Shown here piece by piece: positions 8,631 through 64,000 of a DNA stretch of 64,000 bases (positions are counted from its first letter, which is position 1; every line of letters starts with the position of its first letter). The translations under genes were made by a program, and so were the position numbers. The notes beneath the pieces were generated by a model that was given only the letters and a program-made list of their open reading frames with translations, had not been told where the DNA came from and did not search any database. The stretch lies in NCBI RefSeq assembly GCF_003790525.1, contig NZ_CP033636.1; one strand, written 5' to 3'. Source of the DNA: Escherichia coli (GTDB lineage: Bacteria; Pseudomonadota; Gammaproteobacteria; Enterobacterales; Enterobacteriaceae).

Positions 8631-9139
8631 GAGGTACTCCAGTTCTGCCCGGTACCGCCGGGGCGGTGGTGCGAAAGCCGCACCATGAATGACACTATGA
8701 TCCTCCTGACTTCTATTGTCAATACAATTGAAGCGGCGTTTTATTTATTCATTATTTGGACCCGGCTCGTACGGAACGACCGTCGGGACTTGCCGATCTT
8801 TCTACGGTGAGCAGGGGAAGGGAACATCCCAACGCTTGTTTCCAGATGTGCAGCCTGGGAGGGCGCAGAATGCCTGACAGAATCATCGTGCAGCGGTGGC
8901 GAAAGACCCGACAAACGGGAAAAGCATCCTTTTATTCCAAATCCAACCTCAGCTTTTAATTACGCCAGTACGTTTCCTAAACATGCCAAATCGGTCTCTT
9001 ATACGCCCGGATGGGCCCGATGAAAACGATAAAATGAGAAAAAGAACCCGACACATCGCTGCTCTCTGGGAAAGCCGGTCAGCAGATGGAGCGCCAGAAA
9101 CTAAATCCGCTGGTTTTAATAATGATTGAGGAGAACAAG

Positions 9140-9316
9140 ATGAAAGATAACAAGACACGTCCTGTAGACTCGTATGCTCATGCTGATTTCATGGAGTCCG
9201 TCTTCAGCAACCTCAGGGCTTTCTGTGATGCGGAATGCCAGCGGCTAACTGCCGGTTATCCCCCAACTGTCAAACCAGAACAGCAAAGCACTGACGGCCA
9301 GCTGTCGGCGGCATAA
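9140..9316 (+). CDS. small hypothetical protein (58 aa)
   Basis: ATG preceded by GAGGAG RBS; longer track ORF 9086..9316 probably starts here. Confidence 0.3.
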   Translation: MKDNKTRPVDSYAHADFMESVFSNLRAFCDAECQRLTAGYPPTVKPEQQSTDGQLSAA

Positions 9317-9503
9317 AGCATTACCTGCCAGTTCGTTCAAATTTCTGCTTCCTTAAGCCCGGGCCAAAAGCCCGGCTCAATCCAAAAACTGAACGTACCA
9401 GTTTACCTCTATATCTCCTGAATCCCCTGCGACTTACAAGAGACCCGCACCGGTTTAGCCATTCCTGTCCTGCCACTCTCCCATCACTGGCCCAGACAAC
9501 CGG

Positions 9504-9516
9504 AAAAGTAACTTTT
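9504..9516. promoter_or_regulatory. palindromic motif AAAAGTAACTTTT (candidate operator) upstream of ParB-like gene
   Basis: One of 13 dispersed copies of AAAGTWACTTT; about 215 bp upstream of the ParB-like start. Confidence 0.4.
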
Positions 9517-9629
9517 CTCTCTGAGTCACCTTCTGAACCAGTTATTTTGCTTAAACGTAAAAACGGCCCACTGTTGTGAAGATTTAAAACGGACGGATCG
9601 AGTAGTATTGCCTCAGGAAAATTTTTAAA

Positions 9630-9642
9630 AAAAGTTACTTTT
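9630..9642. promoter_or_regulatory. palindromic motif AAAAGTTACTTTT (candidate operator) upstream of ParB-like gene
   Basis: Second copy, about 90 bp upstream of the ParB-like start. Confidence 0.4.
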
Positions 9643-9731
9643 TCTTCTCCGCAACCTATTAGGAAAAATGTCGAACCTGGTATTGTTGTGTTGTAGCGCA
9701 GTTAAACAACCAACCAAAAAAGAGAACAAAA

Positions 9732-46713: not shown

Positions 46714-47533
46714 GGCACTGTTGCAAATAGTCGGTGGTGATAAACTTATCATCCCCTTTTGCTGATGGAGCTGCACATGAACCCATTCAAAGGCCGGCAT
46801 TTTCAGCGTGACATCATTCTGTGGGCCGTACGCTGGTACTGCAAATACGGCATCAGTTACCGTGAGCTGCAGGAGATGCTGGCTGAACGCGGAGTGAATG
46901 TCGATCACTCCACGATTTACCGCTGGGTTCAGCGTTATGCGCCTGAAATGGAAAAACGGCTGCGCTGGTACTGGCGTAACCCTTCCGATCTTTGCCCGTG
47001 GCACATGGATGAAACCTACGTGAAGGTCAATGGCCGCTGGGCGTATCTGTACCGGGCCGTCGACAGCCGGGGCCGCACTGTCGATTTTTATCTCTCCTCC
47101 CGTCGTAACAGCAAAGCTGCATACCGGTTTCTGGGTAAAATCCTCAACAACGTGAAGAAGTGGCAGATCCCACGATTCATCAACACGGATAAAGCGCCCG
47201 CCTATGGTCGCGCGCTTGCTCTGCTCAAACGCGAAGGCCGGTGCCCGTCTGACGTTGAACACCGACAGATTAAGTACCGGAACAACGTGATTGAATGCGA
47301 TCATGGCAAACTGAAACGGATAATCAACGCCACGCTGGGATTTAAATCCATGAAGACGGCTTACGCCACCATCAAAGGTATTGAGGTGATGCGTGCACTA
47401 CGCAAAGGCCAGGCCTCAGCATTTTATTATGGTGATCCCCTGGGCGAAATGCGCCTGGTAAGCAGAGTTTTTGAAATGTAAGGCCTTTGAATAAGACAAA
47501 AGGCTGCCTCATCGCTAACTTTGCAACAGTGCC
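46714..47533 (+). mobile_element. IS26 (820 bp), no flanking 8-bp target duplication
   Basis: 14-bp terminal repeats GGCACTGTTGCAAA / TTTGCAACAGTGCC; flanks CTTTGCGT versus GGCGAAGC differ. Confidence 0.95.
46777..47481 (+). CDS. tnpA: IS26 transposase Tnp26 (234 aa)
   Basis: MNPFKGRHFQRDIILWAVRWYCKYGISYRELQEM... recognised IS26 transposase. Confidence 0.95.
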   Translation: MNPFKGRHFQRDIILWAVRWYCKYGISYRELQEMLAERGVNVDHSTIYRWVQRYAPEMEKRLRWYWRNPSDLCPWHMDETYVKVNGRWAYLYRAVDSRGRTVDFYLSSRRNSKAAYRFLGKILNNVKKWQIPRFINTDKAPAYGRALALLKREGRCPSDVEHRQIKYRNNVIECDHGKLKRIINATLGFKSMKTAYATIKGIEVMRALRKGQASAFYYGDPLGEMRLVSRVFEM

Positions 47534-58841: not shown

Positions 58842-59661
58842 GGCACTGTTGCAAAGTTAGCGATGAGGCAGCCTTTTGTCTTATTCAAAGGCCTTACATT
58901 TCAAAAACTCTGCTTACCAGGCGCATTTCGCCCAGGGGATCACCATAATAAAATGCTGAGGCCTGGCCTTTGCGTAGTGCACGCATCACCTCAATACCTT
59001 TGATGGTGGCGTAAGCCGTCTTCATGGATTTAAATCCCAGCGTGGCGTTGATTATCCGTTTCAGTTTGCCATGATCGCATTCAATCACGTTGTTCCGGTA
59101 CTTAATCTGTCGGTGTTCAACGTCAGACGGGCACCGGCCTTCGCGTTTGAGCAGAGCAAGCGCGCGACCATAGGCGGGCGCTTTATCCGTGTTGATGAAT
59201 CGTGGGATCTGCCACTTCTTCACGTTGTTGAGGATTTTACCCAGAAACCGGTATGCAGCTTTGCTGTTACGACGGGAGGAGAGATAAAAATCGACAGTGC
59301 GGCCCCGGCTGTCGACGGCCCGGTACAGATACGCCCAGCGGCCATTGACCTTCACGTAGGTTTCATCCATGTGCCACGGGCAAAGATCGGAAGGGTTACG
59401 CCAGTACCAGCGCAGCCGTTTTTCCATTTCAGGCGCATAACGCTGAACCCAGCGGTAAATCGTGGAGTGATCGACATTCACTCCGCGTTCAGCCAGCATC
59501 TCCTGCAGCTCACGGTAACTGATGCCGTATTTGCAGTACCAGCGTACGGCCCACAGAATGATGTCACGCTGAAAATGCCGGCCTTTGAATGGGTTCATGT
59601 GCAGCTCCATCAGCAAAAGGGGATGATAAGTTTATCACCACCGACTATTTGCAACAGTGCC
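58842..59661 (-). mobile_element. IS26 (820 bp), second copy, inverted relative to the first
   Basis: Terminal repeats GGCACTGTTGCAAA / TTTGCAACAGTGCC; internal sequence identical to first copy. Confidence 0.95.
58894..59598 (-). CDS. tnpA: IS26 transposase Tnp26
   Basis: Identical protein to first IS26 copy. Confidence 0.95.
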   Translation of the reverse strand: MNPFKGRHFQRDIILWAVRWYCKYGISYRELQEMLAERGVNVDHSTIYRWVQRYAPEMEKRLRWYWRNPSDLCPWHMDETYVKVNGRWAYLYRAVDSRGRTVDFYLSSRRNSKAAYRFLGKILNNVKKWQIPRFINTDKAPAYGRALALLKREGRCPSDVEHRQIKYRNNVIECDHGKLKRIINATLGFKSMKTAYATIKGIEVMRALRKGQASAFYYGDPLGEMRLVSRVFEM

Positions 59662-60435
59662 CAATACGAATGGCGAAAAGCCGAGCTCATCGGTCAGCTT
59701 CTCAACCTTGGGGTTACCCCCGGCGGTGTGCTGCTGGTCCACAGCTCCTTCCGTAGCGTCCGGCCCCTCGAAGATGGGCCACTTGGACTGATCGAGGCCC
59801 TGCGTGCTGCGCTGGGTCCGGGAGGGACGCTCGTCATGCCCTCGTGGTCAGGTCTGGACGACGAGCCGTTCGATCCTGCCACGTCGCCCGTTACACCGGA
59901 CCTTGGAGTTGTCTCTGACACATTCTGGCGCCTGCCAAATGTAAAGCGCAGCGCCCATCCATTTGCCTTTGCGGCAGCGGGGCCACAGGCAGAGCAGATC
60001 ATCTCTGATCCATTGCCCCTGCCACCTCACTCGCCTGCAAGCCCGGTCGCCCGTGTCCATGAACTCGATGGGCAGGTACTTCTCCTCGGCGTGGGACACG
60101 ATGCCAACACGACGCTGCATCTTGCCGAGTTGATGGCAAAGGTTCCCTATGGGGTGCCGAGACACTGCACCATTCTTCAGGATGGCAAGTTGGTACGCGT
60201 CGATTATCTCGAGAATGACCACTGCTGTGAGCGCTTTGCCTTGGCGGACAGGTGGCTCAAGGAGAAGAGCCTTCAGAAGGAAGGTCCAGTCGGTCATGCC
60301 TTTGCTCGGTTGATCCGCTCCCGCGACATTGTGGCGACAGCCCTGGGTCAACTGGGCCGAGATCCGTTGATCTTCCTGCATCCGCCAGAGGCGGGATGCG
60401 AAGAATGCGATGCCGCTCGCCAGTCGATTGGCTGA
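59662..60435 (+). CDS. aac(3)-IV: aminoglycoside N-acetyltransferase AAC(3)-IV (apramycin/gentamicin); annotated ATG replaced by the IS26 end
   Basis: Begins QYEWRKAELIGQLLNLGVTPGGVLLVHSS... right after IS26 terminal repeat; ends ...CEECDAARQSIG. Confidence 0.85.
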   Translation, partial: QYEWRKAELIGQLLNLGVTPGGVLLVHSSFRSVRPLEDGPLGLIEALRAALGPGGTLVMPSWSGLDDEPFDPATSPVTPDLGVVSDTFWRLPNVKRSAHPFAFAAAGPQAEQIISDPLPLPPHSPASPVARVHELDGQVLLLGVGHDANTTLHLAELMAKVPYGVPRHCTILQDGKLVRVDYLENDHCCERFALADRWLKEKSLQKEGPVGHAFARLIRSRDIVATALGQLGRDPLIFLHPPEAGCEECDAARQSIG

Positions 60436-60663
60436 GCTCATGAGCGGAGAACGAGATGACGTTGGAGGGGCAAGGTCGCGCTGATTGCTGGGGCAACACG
60501 TGGAGCGGATCGGGGATTGTCTTTCTTCAGCTCGCTGATGATATGCTGACGCTCAATGCCGTTTGGCCTCCGACTAACGAAAATCCCGCATTTGGACGGC
60601 TGATCCGATTGGCACGGCGGACGGCGAATGGCGGAGCAGACGCTCGTCCGGGGGCAATGAGAT

Positions 60664-61689
60664 ATGAAAAAGCCTGAACTCACCGCGACGTCTGTCGAGA
60701 AGTTTCTGATCGAAAAGTTCGACAGCGTCTCCGACCTGATGCAGCTCTCGGAGGGCGAAGAATCTCGTGCTTTCAGCTTCGATGTAGGAGGGCGTGGATA
60801 TGTCCTGCGGGTAAATAGCTGCGCCGATGGTTTCTACAAAGATCGTTATGTTTATCGGCACTTTGCATCGGCCGCGCTCCCGATTCCGGAAGTGCTTGAC
60901 ATTGGGGAATTCAGCGAGAGCCTGACCTATTGCATCTCCCGCCGTGCACAGGGTGTCACGTTGCAAGACCTGCCTGAAACCGAACTGCCCGCTGTTCTGC
61001 AGCCGGTCGCGGAGGCCATGGATGCGATCGCTGCGGCCGATCTTAGCCAGACGAGCGGGTTCGGCCCATTCGGACCGCAAGGAATCGGTCAATACACTAC
61101 ATGGCGTGATTTCATATGCGCGATTGCTGATCCCCATGTGTATCACTGGCAAACTGTGATGGACGACACCGTCAGTGCGTCCGTCGCGCAGGCTCTCGAT
61201 GAGCTGATGCTTTGGGCCGAGGACTGCCCCGAAGTCCGGCACCTCGTGCACGCGGATTTCGGCTCCAACAATGTCCTGACGGACAATGGCCGCATAACAG
61301 CGGTCATTGACTGGAGCGAGGCGATGTTCGGGGATTCCCAATACGAGGTCGCCAACATCTTCTTCTGGAGGCCGTGGTTGGCTTGTATGGAGCAGCAGAC
61401 GCGCTACTTCGAGCGGAGGCATCCGGAGCTTGCAGGATCGCCGCGGCTCCGGGCGTATATGCTCCGCATTGGTCTTGACCAACTCTATCAGAGCTTGGTT
61501 GACGGCAATTTCGATGATGCAGCTTGGGCGCAGGGTCGATGCGACGCAATCGTCCGATCCGGAGCCGGGACTGTCGGGCGTACACAAATCGCCCGCAGAA
61601 GCGCGGCCGTCTGGACCGATGGCTGTGTAGAAGTACTCGCCGATAGTGGAAACCGACGCCCCAGCACTCGTCCGAGGGCAAAGGAATAG
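60664..61689 (+). CDS. aph(4)-Ia: hygromycin B phosphotransferase Hph / APH(4)-Ia (341 aa)
   Basis: MKKPELTATSVEKFLIEKFDSVSDLMQLSEGEESRAFSFDVGGRGYVLRVNSCADGFYKDRYVYRHF... recognised Hph. Confidence 0.95.
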   Translation: MKKPELTATSVEKFLIEKFDSVSDLMQLSEGEESRAFSFDVGGRGYVLRVNSCADGFYKDRYVYRHFASAALPIPEVLDIGEFSESLTYCISRRAQGVTLQDLPETELPAVLQPVAEAMDAIAAADLSQTSGFGPFGPQGIGQYTTWRDFICAIADPHVYHWQTVMDDTVSASVAQALDELMLWAEDCPEVRHLVHADFGSNNVLTDNGRITAVIDWSEAMFGDSQYEVANIFFWRPWLACMEQQTRYFERRHPELAGSPRLRAYMLRIGLDQLYQSLVDGNFDDAAWAQGRCDAIVRSGAGTVGRTQIARRSAAVWTDGCVEVLADSGNRRPSTRPRAKE

Positions 61690-61694
61690 AGTAG

Positions 61695-62057
61695 ATGCCG
61701 ACCGAACAAGAGCTGATTTCGAGAACGCCTCAGCCAGCAACTCGCGCGAGCCTAGCAAGGCAAATGCGAGAGAACGGCCTTACGCTTGGTGGCACAGTTC
61801 TCGTCCACAGTTCGCTAAGCTCGCTCGGCTGGGTCGCGGGAGGGCCGGTCGCAGTGATTCAGGCCCTTCTGGATTGTGTTGGTCCCCAGGGCACGATTGT
61901 CATGCCCACGCACTCGGGTGATCTGACTGATCCCGCAGATTGGAGATCGCCGCCCGTGCCTGCCGATTGGGTGCAGATCTTGCGCAACGAGATGCCGGCA
62001 TACGATCCGCAAACCACACCAACTCGGAACATGGGTGCAGTGGCTGAATTGTTCCGG
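61695..62057 (+). pseudogene. 5-prime fragment of an AAC(3)-family acetyltransferase paralogue, truncated by IS6-family element
   Basis: TVLVHSSLSSLGWVAGGPVAVIQALLDCVGPQGTIVMPTHSGDL parallels AAC(3)-IV GVLLVHSSFRSV...GGTLVMPSWSGL; homology ends near the IS inverted repeat. Confidence 0.5.
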
Positions 62058-62946
62058 GCGTGTCGCAAACACTTTTGGAGGCAGCTATCACCCAGCCAAG
62101 GCCGGTATTTTCATGCTTTGTTAACCTTTTGCAGTCCGAAGAGGCGCGCAAGCAAATCATTCTGGTCATTGACGGTCCAGCCGCCTGAAAAGCCAAAGCC
62201 CTTCCGCAGCCACAGCATCGCCTCGAAACCCGCGATGGTTCGCCGCGCCGTGTTAAAGGATTGGAAACCGCCGATCTTCGGCATGTTCTTCTTCACCCGG
62301 AAATGGTCGCTCTCAATCCCCTGCTGGAGATGTTTGGTCACATAATGCACGGGATCGGGATGGAGAAGCCCATCATCAACCGACGTTTTGATCGTTGACG
62401 GGAAGGTGTTGGCCCCGTCCGTCCCAATCCTGTTCGGCGACAACAAGGGTTCATCTTTAAGCATCTTTCGGAAGAACCGCTTGGCAGCGTCGAGATCGCG
62501 CTTAGCGGTCAGCAGGAAATCCACCGGATTGCCATGCTTATCGATGGCTCGGTACAGATAGCGCCATTTGCCGCGGATCTTGACATAGGTCTCATCAATC
62601 CGGACCGAGCCGCAATGGGGTCGACGAAACTGCCGCAGCCGTTTCTCGATGACAGGTGCATAAGCCAATACCCAGCGGTTGATCGTGCTATGATCGACCT
62701 CGAAGCCCCGCTCGCGAAACATCTCTTCCAAGTCACGATAGCTGAGCGGGTAGCGCAAGTACCAGGCAACCGCCTGTACAATCAGCCAGGCCTCGAAATG
62801 CCTGCCCTTGAAATCATCCTTCGACTGGCGCTTCAGCTTTTCGGCAATGGTATTCAAAATCATCGGCTCGCTCCGCAATATCAGGAGCGGCAACTTCTCT
62901 CCCCATGGTCAACATCGAGTTAACCTGAAGAATTTGCGACAAGGCC
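62057..62946 (-). mobile_element. IS6-family insertion sequence distinct from IS26 (possibly ISEc59-like); ends approximate
   Basis: Imperfect terminal inverted repeats GGCGTGTCGCAAAC / ATTTGCGACAAGGCC; internal IS6-type transposase. Confidence 0.6.
62111..62893 (-). CDS. IS6-family transposase (true start probably the internal Met, about 250 aa)
   Basis: FKGRHFEAWLIVQAVAWYLRYPLSYRDLEEMFRERGFEVDHSTINRWV parallels the IS26 Tnp N-terminus; DDE core. Confidence 0.75.
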   Translation of the reverse strand: MPLLILRSEPMILNTIAEKLKRQSKDDFKGRHFEAWLIVQAVAWYLRYPLSYRDLEEMFRERGFEVDHSTINRWVLAYAPVIEKRLRQFRRPHCGSVRIDETYVKIRGKWRYLYRAIDKHGNPVDFLLTAKRDLDAAKRFFRKMLKDEPLLSPNRIGTDGANTFPSTIKTSVDDGLLHPDPVHYVTKHLQQGIESDHFRVKKNMPKIGGFQSFNTARRTIAGFEAMLWLRKGFGFSGGWTVNDQNDLLARLFGLQKVNKA

Positions 62947-64000
62947 ATGCGTTCCGCTCCGGAGATGTCTGGCTTACTAGGTCCCGGCGCTATGGCGATC
63001 TGAAACACGCACTCGTTCCGGCACAATCCATCGCGGAAGGCGGTCGTCTCGCTGTGCCATTGCGGCCGGAGGAATGGCTGGCAGACCGGCAAGCTCGCCT
63101 CGACATGCGGTTGCGCGAGCTTGGCCGTGCCGCTCGCGCAGGCACGATCCCGGGCGGGTCGATTGAAAACGGCGTTCTGCATATCGAGAAACTCGAAGCC
63201 GCCGCGCCGACAGGCGCCGAAGATCTGGTGCTCGATCTCTACAAGCAGATCCCGCCCACGCGCATCACCGATCTCCTGCTGGAGGTGGATGCGGCGACCG
63301 GCTTCACCGAAGCGTTCACCCATCTGCGCACAGGAGCACCCTGCGCTGACCGGATCGGGCTAATGAACGTTATCTTGGCGGAAGGGATCAACCTCGGCTT
63401 GCGCAAAATGGCGGATGCGACAAACACCCACACCTTCTGGGAATTGATCCGCATTGGACGGTGGCATGTCGAGGGCGAAGCCTATGACCGGGCGCTGGCC
63501 ATGGTGGTCGAGGCACAGGCAGCGTTACCCATGGCCCGGTTCTGGGGCATGGGCACGTCGGCTTCGAGCGACGGACAGTTCTTCGTCGCTACAGAGCAAG
63601 GTGAGGCCATGAACCTGGTCAACGCGAAATATGGCAATACCCCGGGCCTGAAAGCCTATAGCCACGTCTCCGACCAATATGCGCCGTTCGCAACCCAGGT
63701 GATTCCTGCAACGGCAAGCGAAGCGCCTTACATCCTCGATGGCCTGCTGATGAACGATGCTGGACGCCATATCCGCGAGCAGTTCACCGACACGGGCGGC
63801 TTCACCGATCACGTCTTTGCCGCATGTGCCATTCTCGGCTACCGGTTCGCTCCGCGCATCCGCGACCTGCCATCCAAACGGCTCTACGCGTTCAATCCGT
63901 CGGCCGCCCCGGCGCACCTGCGAGCGTTGATCGGCGGAAAGGTCAACCAAGCCATGATCGAGCGCAATTGGCCCGACATCCTGCGCATCGCCGCCACCAT
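62947..64000 (+). pseudogene. tnpA: Tn3-family transposase TnpA, internal to C-proximal fragment; 5-prime end removed by IS6-family element, 3-prime end beyond window
   Basis: Frame open to window end; ...WELIRIGRWHVEGEAYDRALAMVVEAQAALPMARFWGMGTSASSDGQFF...FTDTGGFTDHVFAACAILGYRFAPRIRDL... typical Tn3-family TnpA C-terminal region. Confidence 0.7.

Follow-up and report, generated by a model that had tools for sequence, protein, structure and literature searches.

What is the short reading frame that follows the hygromycin resistance gene hph in Escherichia coli contig NZ_CP033636.1, and how did it come to lie beside an insertion sequence and a piece of a transposon? We addressed these questions in a 64,000-nt stretch of that contig (the window), whose last part carries the features listed in Table 1. 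As a whole, this region is best explained, and we hold this with high confidence, as the right-hand end of the IS26-aac(3)-IVa-aph(4)-Ia-ISEc59 resistance unit. The module has been named the "IS26-aacC4-aph(4)-Ia-ISEc59 unit" and, followed by a tnpA remnant, is known from multiresistance regions of Enterobacterales and of Proteus/Providencia (PMC8239412, PMC9058013, PMC7457074).

The window shares gene order, insertion sequence and junctions with the published unit at 100% nucleotide identity, and the sole difference is at the left end, the right end being identical. On the left, IS26 is bounded by exact 14-bp terminal repeats, GGCACTGTTGCAAA, at 58842-58855 (+) and 59648-59661 (-), and its transposase is labelled IS26 family in identical records. 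In the junction alignment it lies 53 bp nearer to aac(3)-IVa than in the majority of records, an arrangement found also in the K. pneumoniae plasmids NZ_CP138816 and NZ_CP138824, and for this reason aac(3)-IVa lacks its usual GTG start here. RefSeq already carries the same three features to the right of hph, namely an AAC(3) pseudogene, an IS6 transposase and a Tn3-family pseudogene. The unit is real, ordinary, widespread and known before, and current understanding of it is unchanged by this structure.

Table 1. Positions of the features at the right-hand end of the window
Feature	Position	Strand	Remarks
IS26	58842..59661	-	820 bp; left limit of the unit; given for context
aac(3)-IVa, apramycin/gentamicin acetyltransferase	59662..60435	+	NCBIfam AAC_3_IV 483.6 bits (cut-off 420)
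aph(4)-Ia (hph), hygromycin B phosphotransferase	60664..61689	+	NCBIfam APH_4_Ia 827.5 bits (cut-off 725); full length, 1-341
Antibiotic_NAT (AAC(3)-family) 5' remnant, FrbF/BA2930/YokD type	61695..62055	+	120 codons + 1 base; pseudogene
ISEc59, IS6-family insertion sequence	62056..62946	-	891 bp; terminal inverted repeats 62056-62074 and 62928-62946
ISEc59 transposase gene, intact	62111..62863	-	250 aa; RefSeq protein WP_000602738.1
Tn5393 tnpA, 3' part	62947..64000, runs off the window	+	residue about 463 of 961 onward; frame from 62949

The truncated third gene

A preliminary description of this DNA had placed the start of a gene five nucleotides past the hph stop, and this is where it lies: the TAG at 61687-61689 is followed by the spacer AGTAG (61690-61694) and by an ATG at 61695, with a purine-rich stretch upstream. 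The reading frame (61695-62345) encodes 216 amino acids and runs into the insertion sequence, with a family match confined to its N-terminus. Codons 1-120 (61695-62054) correspond to the N-terminal 40% of the Antibiotic_NAT/AAC(3) family, and the IS boundary falls within codon 121. The similarity to AAC(3) enzymes that had been proposed is significant. Residues 36-122 match positions 1-86 of the 232 in Pfam PF02522 (Antibiotic_NAT; 124.8 bits, cut-off 25, E 5e-36), and residues 16-121 match positions 2-104 of the 262 in NCBIfam AAC_3 (E 3e-21), where the score of 76.1 bits is below the full-length cut-off of 270 because just 40% of the protein is present. The family match ends at residue about 121-122, and the RefSeq label reads 'AAC(3) family N-acetyltransferase, incomplete, missing C-terminus'.

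The complete fold of the family, about 220 residues with a catalytic His/Glu dyad, is absent. In AAC(3)-IVa the catalytic residue is His154, and Glu185/Asp187 bind the substrate (PMC8956665); the equivalent region falls past the truncation. Since the dyad region is lost and only profile positions 1-86 of 232 are covered, this is a gene remnant and not a functional family member. One might argue that the 216-aa read-through product is a functional chimera, or that the remnant is kept for translational coupling or to stabilise hph expression, as hundreds of records have it unchanged and equally far from hph, with its start so close behind the hph stop and a purine-rich stretch before it. We regard this as highly improbable, because the chimera holds 86 of the 232 Pfam profile positions only, without the equivalents of His154 and Glu185/Asp187 (PMC8956665), because its tail is antisense IS sequence, and because variants with frameshifts or other tails, giving products of 142-194 aa, exist. 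Linkage of hph with the IS accounts for the retention of the remnant, and selection is unnecessary. What remains is a dead 5' remnant, at most translated as a chimera that runs antisense into the IS.

To which branch of the family did this gene belong? Among solved structures, the closest to the 120-aa remnant are FrbF of Streptomyces rubellomurinus (58% identity over 107 aa), BA2930 of Bacillus anthracis (50% over 115 aa) and YokD of B. subtilis, with E-values of 4e-37 to 5e-35; of such proteins the remnant keeps the N-terminal ~40% only. These three are Antibiotic_NAT-fold enzymes, reported as a family outgroup without aminoglycoside activity (PMC8956665). In the same search AAC(3)-IVa is matched at just E 9e-11, some 25 orders of magnitude behind. 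The remnant also falls outside the AAC(3)-IV subfamily, scoring 55.7 bits with NCBIfam AAC_3_IV against a cut-off of 420. The gene product had been described as paralleling the AAC(3)-IV N-terminus, as a paralogue; this stands at the level of the family (PF02522), but the relationship goes no closer, the similarity to FrbF, BA2930 and YokD being greater than that to AAC(3)-IVa. Judged from sequence, the remnant is a paralogue of AAC(3)-IV at family level only and no close one.

These comparisons bear on the idea that the third reading frame is a recent tandem duplicate of aac(3)-IV that arose within the unit and was truncated later. Shared membership in PF02522, a pairwise identity of 43% over the N-terminal 75 residues (E 2e-14) and similar G+C contents (0.60 for the remnant, 0.61 for aac(3)-IV) would fit such an origin. 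However, both the closer match to FrbF, BA2930 and YokD and the higher score with the general AAC_3 profile than with AAC_3_IV imply that the divergence from aac(3)-IV is ancient, at the level of family branches, and a recent duplication is therefore very unlikely.

Co-transcription of the remnant with hph is suggested by the 5-nt spacing and by the lack of any plus-strand terminator prediction from the aac(3)-IVa start to 62270, inside the IS. A promoter and terminator scan of 59400-63100 gave nothing exceeding shuffled expectation and is uninformative on the operon claim. No intact copy was found, and we therefore infer rather than observe that the third gene was originally full length and co-transcribed with hph.

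ISEc59 and the join to Tn5393

The element that ends the third gene past codon 120 belongs to the IS6 family and differs from IS26, as had been claimed: the two transposases are 45% identical. Its single DDE transposase matches NCBIfam transpos_IS6 (NF033587) over positions 1-202 of 202 with 252.4 bits against a cut-off of 125, and Pfam DDE_Tnp_IS240 with 183 bits. The terminal repeats are of the GGC...TTGCAAA type and bound a segment of ~0.8-0.9 kb, so that the element shares with IS26 and other IS6 elements both the IS240/IS6-type transposase and the GGC...TGTCGCAAA-type ends. The two ends, GGGCGTGTCGCAAA and GGCCTTGTCGCAAA, lie 891 bp apart and are imperfect, with 12 of the 14 terminal bases matching. 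Relatives on Rhizobium, Agrobacterium and Sinorhizobium plasmids are 82-86% identical at the nucleotide level. The name ISEc59 rests on papers that so label the IS at this position (PMC7457074, PMC8239412, PMC9058013).

Four independent lines of evidence fix the IS boundaries at 62056 and 62946: the inverted repeat itself (62056-62074 against 62928-62946); the divergence past ...AVAELFR of all database proteins that are 100% identical to the remnant; an alignment to an intact Tn5393 tnpA that begins exactly at 62947; and the Rhizobiaceae IS relatives, which align from about 62058 up to 62946. The homology of the third gene had been said to stop near 62057; with the boundary at 62055/62056, this was right to within one base.

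At its other end ISEc59 abuts the 3' 1,535 bp of Tn5393, consisting of tnpA from codon about 463 and the terminal repeat. The window holds the first 1,054 bases of this segment, which show no mismatch to the intact 961-aa tnpA of record L004. The frame runs from 62949 to the window end at 64000; the preliminary description had noted that it is open to that end and has no start. The fragment matches positions 450-807 of the 954 in the NCBIfam Tn3 transposase profile (NF033527; E 3e-123), where truncation of the protein keeps the score at 413 bits, under the cut-off of 500, and it also matches Pfam DDE_Tnp_Tn3, as a fragment of a Tn3-type TnpA would.

The resistance region had been expected to go on past the window, and related records show that it does. 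In these the tnpA remnant ends at the equivalent of 64448 and the Tn5393 terminal inverted repeat at 64481, about 480 bp past the window. The terminal repeat of Tn5393 (81 bp, cited in PMC9019673; 38-bp core GGGG...ACGCTAAG) is seen in related records only, with the core at the equivalent of 64444-64481. The last 81 bp there share 98.8% identity with the repeat next to strB, and two records diverge exactly past 64481, the outer end of the repeat. On pPSR1 of Pseudomonas syringae, Tn5393 (Tn3 family; tnpA-tnpR-strA-strB) carries the same tnpA beside tnpR-strA-strB, and the 5' half of the L004 tnpA, which is missing in the window, is 100% identical to the tnpA of pPSR1. In comparison with Tn5393, only the 3' 1,535 bp survive: the first approximately 462 tnpA codons and everything upstream are replaced by ISEc59, and with the tnpA 5' half, res, tnpR, strA, strB and the other repeat gone, the tnpA remnant is unable to transpose.

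The commonest way in which an IS interrupts a gene is simple insertion, which here would mean that both flanks of ISEc59 come from one continuous gene or region. An 8-bp target-site duplication is expected for a simple insertion, or for a resolved cointegrate at one site. None is present, the left flank being ATTGTTCC and the right flank ATGCGTTC, and a search at both IS ends with shifts of ±4 bp gave only a chance match of 6/8 (GTTCCG), out of register. Moreover, an Antibiotic_NAT gene lies to the left and Tn5393 tnpA from codon about 463 to the right, and intact Tn5393 carries unrelated sequence to the left of the breakpoint. The differing flanks and the comparison with intact Tn5393 refute a simple insertion, to which we assign next to no probability. 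IS6 elements commonly lack the duplication once copies have recombined with one another or a deletion has occurred; its absence concerns the past of this ISEc59 copy, not the membership of the element in the IS6 family. ISEc59 here bridges unrelated DNA without duplication, like other IS6 elements, and the earlier view that it joins two unrelated modules holds.

Distribution of the junctions and a possible history

At least 80% of the segment 59600-64000 is covered by 631 plasmid records, and for the IS with its flanks 728 records reach a coverage of at least 80%, both flanks being spanned in every sampled full-length record. Matches occur in 380 of 5,426 complete E. coli genomes and extend over at least 80% in 173; of the 417 records that match in this search, 415 have an identity of 99% or more. 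ISEc59 is present at a single place in nearly all records listed. Neither a second ISEc59 copy nor a reciprocal junction was found, and none of the sampled records has ISEc59 in another context. In a survey of Salmonella genomes, unrelated isolates had ISEc59 at a constant distance from resistance genes, and one array bears the label 'ISEc59; 368' (PMC7729385). In the window, 366 nt separate hph from the IS.

Misassembly is common in IS-rich multiresistance regions, where repeats may collapse at IS copies, and the junctions could in principle be an artefact of this kind. The probability of this is vanishingly small, given that hundreds of complete plasmids and chromosomes of many genera, sequenced independently, have the same junctions, and that ISEc59, confined to a single site in nearly all of the records listed, has no second copy to cause a collapse.

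With a genuine join, one may propose the following history. A high-G+C donor would have carried aac(3)-IV, hph and then, 5 nt past hph, a third gene encoding an Antibiotic_NAT-fold N-acetyltransferase of the FrbF/BA2930/YokD type. IS6-family elements move via cointegrate formation; inter-copy recombination or deletion may then have left one IS with flanks from different molecules and no 8-bp duplication. With hundreds of plasmids and chromosomes sharing these exact junctions, a single origin of the join is probable, and the remnant/ISEc59 and ISEc59/Tn5393 junctions together would be the clonal signature of that one ancestral event. After the join, the whole block would have been moved passively by IS26 and other elements.

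The remnant as a possible relic of the donor locus

Among 5.8 billion proteins we found no full-length progenitor of the remnant. The 100%-identical matches all break at the same residue and then continue into IS-derived or frameshifted tails, and the next-best relatives are at most 69-72% identical. Nor was a native three-gene cluster found: the contigs of homologues of the remnant (P0014, P0019), of Hph (P0129, P0130) and of AAC(3)-IVa (P0242, P0246) showed no adjacency. An Hph variant of 91% identity (P0127) was considered as a progenitor and rejected; it belongs to the same aac(3)-IV...ISEc59 unit, seen there on short metagenome contigs, and probably represents a frameshifted copy.

Tentatively, and with the odds against it, the 120-codon remnant may be all that is left of the native aac(3)-IV/hph neighbourhood, from a donor that had both genes and a FrbF/YokD-type N-acetyltransferase in one transcription unit. 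Hph has its nearest homologues mostly in Brucella, Ensifer, Mesorhizobium, Bosea and Paenibacillus, and an AAC(3)-IV homologue of 73% identity occurs in Sinorhizobium medicae. Together with the 82-86% identity of ISEc59 to the copies on Rhizobium, Agrobacterium and Sinorhizobium plasmids, these homologues give a weak hint of a donor or intermediate host among the Hyphomicrobiales (rhizobia-like).

The unit makes its hosts resistant to apramycin, gentamicin and hygromycin B and is frequent in livestock-associated Enterobacterales, and exact knowledge of its boundaries helps annotation and the tracking of the module. Our addition is a modest one: by its sequence similarity, the truncated gene sits in the FrbF/YokD-like branch and not in AAC(3)-IV, so that what survives may be a relic of the donor locus and not another gene for resistance. 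If this is true, the remnant could be a probe for the origin of apramycin and hygromycin resistance.

The gene fragment downstream of hph

A gene was expected five nucleotides after hph (aph(4)-Ia), and indeed the stop codon TAG (61687-61689) is followed by the spacer AGTAG and an ATG at 61695, which opens a third ORF (see table). In Pfam and NCBIfam profile searches, family resemblance is confined to the N-terminal part of this ORF, residues 36-122 matching positions 1-86 of 232 of PF02522 (Antibiotic_NAT; E 5e-36) and residues 16-121 matching positions 2-104 of 262 of AAC_3 (E 3e-21). Since the profile matches stop at residues 121-122, the acetyltransferase gene fragment ends at 62055. The remainder of the ORF (62056-62345) is a read-through tail of antisense IS sequence; its length differs between records (products of 142-194 aa), and the tail is therefore not conserved. 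With a 5-nt spacing and no plus-strand terminator predicted before 62270, a position within the IS, co-transcription with hph is plausible. The G+C content is even over aac(3)-IVa, hph and the remnant (0.58-0.61), which fits a single origin of the three.

The preliminary description took the remnant for a truncated AAC(3)-family paralogue whose product parallels the AAC(3)-IV N-terminus. Membership of the AAC(3) family stands, on the strength of the PF02522 match, but close paralogy is ruled out: BLASTP gives 43% identity to AAC(3)-IV over 75 residues, and AAC(3)-IVa structures are matched at E 9e-11, as against E 4e-37 to 5e-35 for the solved structures of FrbF (58% identity over 107 aa), Bacillus anthracis BA2930 (50% over 115 aa) and B. 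subtilis YokD. In a family-wide study, these three proteins form an Antibiotic_NAT-fold outgroup with no aminoglycoside activity (PMC8956665). From this likeness, the enzyme that was lost may have had nothing to do with aminoglycoside resistance. The remnant itself is predicted to be non-functional, because the positions equivalent to the catalytic His154 and the substrate-binding residues 185 and 187 of AAC(3)-IVa (PMC8956665) all fall past the truncation point.

The last 45 or so residues of Hph (codons 297-341; 61552-61686) form a C-terminal tail that extends right to the start of the truncated gene. The nearest homologues of Hph, one of them from Brucella cytisi, lack this tail; they are 297-301 aa long and no more than 55% identical. 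In two metagenome contigs (L011, L012) the aac(3)-IV...ISEc59 unit is again present, here with an Hph variant of 310 aa (91% identity, covering 80% of the query); a frameshift in a copy of the gene, not divergence of a relative, is the probable cause.

Features at the right-hand end of the resistance unit (window positions)
Feature	Position	Strand	Remarks
hph (aph(4)-Ia)	60664-61689	+	
Third ORF	61695-62345	+	216 aa
Acetyltransferase gene fragment	61695-62055	+	120 whole codons and one base
ISEc59	62056-62946		891 bp; inverted repeats and outside alignments at both ends
Terminal inverted repeats of the IS	62056-62074 and 62928-62946		inverted-repeat pairing
IS transposase gene	62111-62863	-	intact, 250 aa
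Tn5393 tnpA fragment	62947-64000	+	starts at about residue 463 of 961

Extent and identity of the insertion sequence

Homology had been placed as ending near 62057, at an IS inverted repeat; we set the boundary at 62055/62056. The outer 14 bases of the IS ends (GGGCGTGTCGCAAA and GGCCTTGTCGCAAA) are of the IS26 type and identical at 12 of 14 positions. All database proteins 100% identical to the remnant diverge past ...AVAELFR, fixing the left end, and the alignment of intact Tn5393 tnpA, starting at exactly 62947, fixes the right. Relatives with 82-86% identity, carried by plasmids of Rhizobium leguminosarum and Agrobacterium vitis, align from about 62058 to 62946. With this external evidence on both ends, the element is delimited as in the table.

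The transposase contains a Pfam DDE_Tnp_IS240 domain and reaches 252 bits with the NCBIfam IS6-family model (cut-off 125). The IS26 transposase (gene at 58894-59598) shares 45% identity with it, so that the IS is, as first read, a different IS6-family element. Its name, ISEc59, is taken from the papers' label for the IS at this position of the module, which is written 'IS26-aac(3)-IVa-aph(4)-Ia-ISEc59-tnpA' (PMC7457074) or 'IS26-aacC4-aph(4)-Ia-ISEc59 unit' (PMC8239412, PMC9058013).

The Tn5393 fragment and the surroundings of the unit

The Tn3-family tnpA is truncated by the IS, as had been proposed: 62947-64000 matches an intact 961-aa transposase gene (WP_001138082.1) on an Escherichia fergusonii plasmid with no mismatch in 1,054 bases. 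The 5' half missing here is, in that plasmid's copy, 100% identical to tnpA of Pseudomonas syringae pPSR1, which lies back to back with tnpR-strA-strB in the Tn5393 arrangement. Projected from related records past 64000, the stop codon lies at 64446-64448 and the terminal repeat ends at 64481 (last 38 bases, other strand: GGGGTCGTTTGCGGGAGGGGGCGGAATCCTACGCTAAG). Over its final 81 bp the sequence has 98.8% identity to the repeat that accompanies strB in thousands of plasmids, in agreement with the 81-bp terminal repeats of Tn5393 (PMC9019673). Two records with different neighbours part exactly past this repeat, which is therefore the true transposon end.

Beyond it, from the equivalent of 64482 onward, many E. 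coli plasmids (8884-9700 in comparison record L002) have A+T-rich DNA (33% G+C) that includes a fragment with the annotation 'phenol hydroxylase subunit', followed by ISAba1, sul2, ISCR2 and floR. A Klebsiella pneumoniae plasmid sharing the window's IS26 junction has kfrB/trbI-type plasmid genes there instead.

At that junction (59661/59662, within 59623-59675), IS26 adjoins CAATACGAATGG of aac(3)-IVa, and 53 bp found in most plasmids, including RefSeq's GTG start codon, are absent. Two K. pneumoniae plasmids of Zhejiang origin lack them as well. Translation from an in-frame ATG within the IS26 terminal repeat region (59623) would lengthen the product by 13 residues (MISLSPPTICNSA); the RGI/CARD gene call in an identical record begins exactly there. 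Another IS26, its terminal repeats exact, is found some 11 kb upstream (46714-47533), and the two copies could define a larger IS26-bounded segment. Upstream of the unit, 39001-59660 is a class 1 integron region with sul3, as in NZ_CP138816, in the order cmlA1, aadA1, sul3, SDR-family gene, mef(B) remnant and IS26. The first 25,000 nt match a large conjugative plasmid backbone (MobH relaxase, TraD), best in Enterobacterales plasmids of 219-274 kb, taken to be of IncHI2 type from their gene content.

Formation, origin and spread of the junction

The IS lies, as suggested, between unrelated modules, with the acetyltransferase gene on its left and the middle of a transposase gene on its right. 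The flanking 8 bp differ (ATTGTTCC vs ATGCGTTC), and no 8-bp target duplication was found at the boundaries or on shifting them. Elements of the IS6 family form cointegrates, and subsequent recombination or deletion between copies leaves one IS bridging unrelated DNA with no duplication. By analogy with the family, the ISEc59 junction would be the trace of such cointegrate formation, followed by inter-copy recombination or deletion. Neither a reciprocal junction nor another copy of ISEc59, from which the route could be rebuilt, was found.

A search of 5.8 billion proteins yielded no full-length third gene, and other matches did not exceed 69-72% identity. Hph has its nearest homologues mostly in Hyphomicrobiales and Paenibacillus; those of AAC(3)-IVa (at most 78% identical) come from scattered taxa, among them Sinorhizobium medicae and Cupriavidus gilardii. 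In the contigs examined, homologues of the remnant, Hph and AAC(3)-IVa were never adjacent. That ISEc59 and Hph lean towards rhizobia is at most a hint of a donor or intermediate host.

The preliminary description is borne out, both in what it observed and in how it read it. The feature is already known and annotated, RefSeq listing here an 'AAC(3) family N-acetyltransferase, incomplete, missing C-terminus', an 'IS6 family transposase' and a 'Tn3 family transposase, incomplete, missing N-terminus'; our refinements are the identities of the IS and the transposon and the family branch of the acetyltransferase. A Salmonella genome survey reports that the distance between ISEc59 and resistance genes is constant in unrelated isolates, and labels one array 'ISEc59; 368' (PMC7729385). 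We read 368 as a distance, which the survey does not say outright; the hph-to-IS gap in the window is 366 nt. At least 80% of 59600-64000 is covered in 631 plasmid records, mainly from Escherichia, Klebsiella, Salmonella, Enterobacter and Citrobacter, those listed being 100% identical. The IS with 50-bp flanks is covered to at least 80% in 728 records; the full-length IS records sampled from across the ranking all include both flanks, and no sampled record has ISEc59 in another context. Among 5,426 complete E. coli genomes, 61600-64000 is matched in 380 (at least 80% covered in 173), and 415 of 417 matching E. coli records are at least 99% identical to it. From its commonness and sameness across records, the join seems to have arisen once, in an ancestor, and to have been carried along passively since then.
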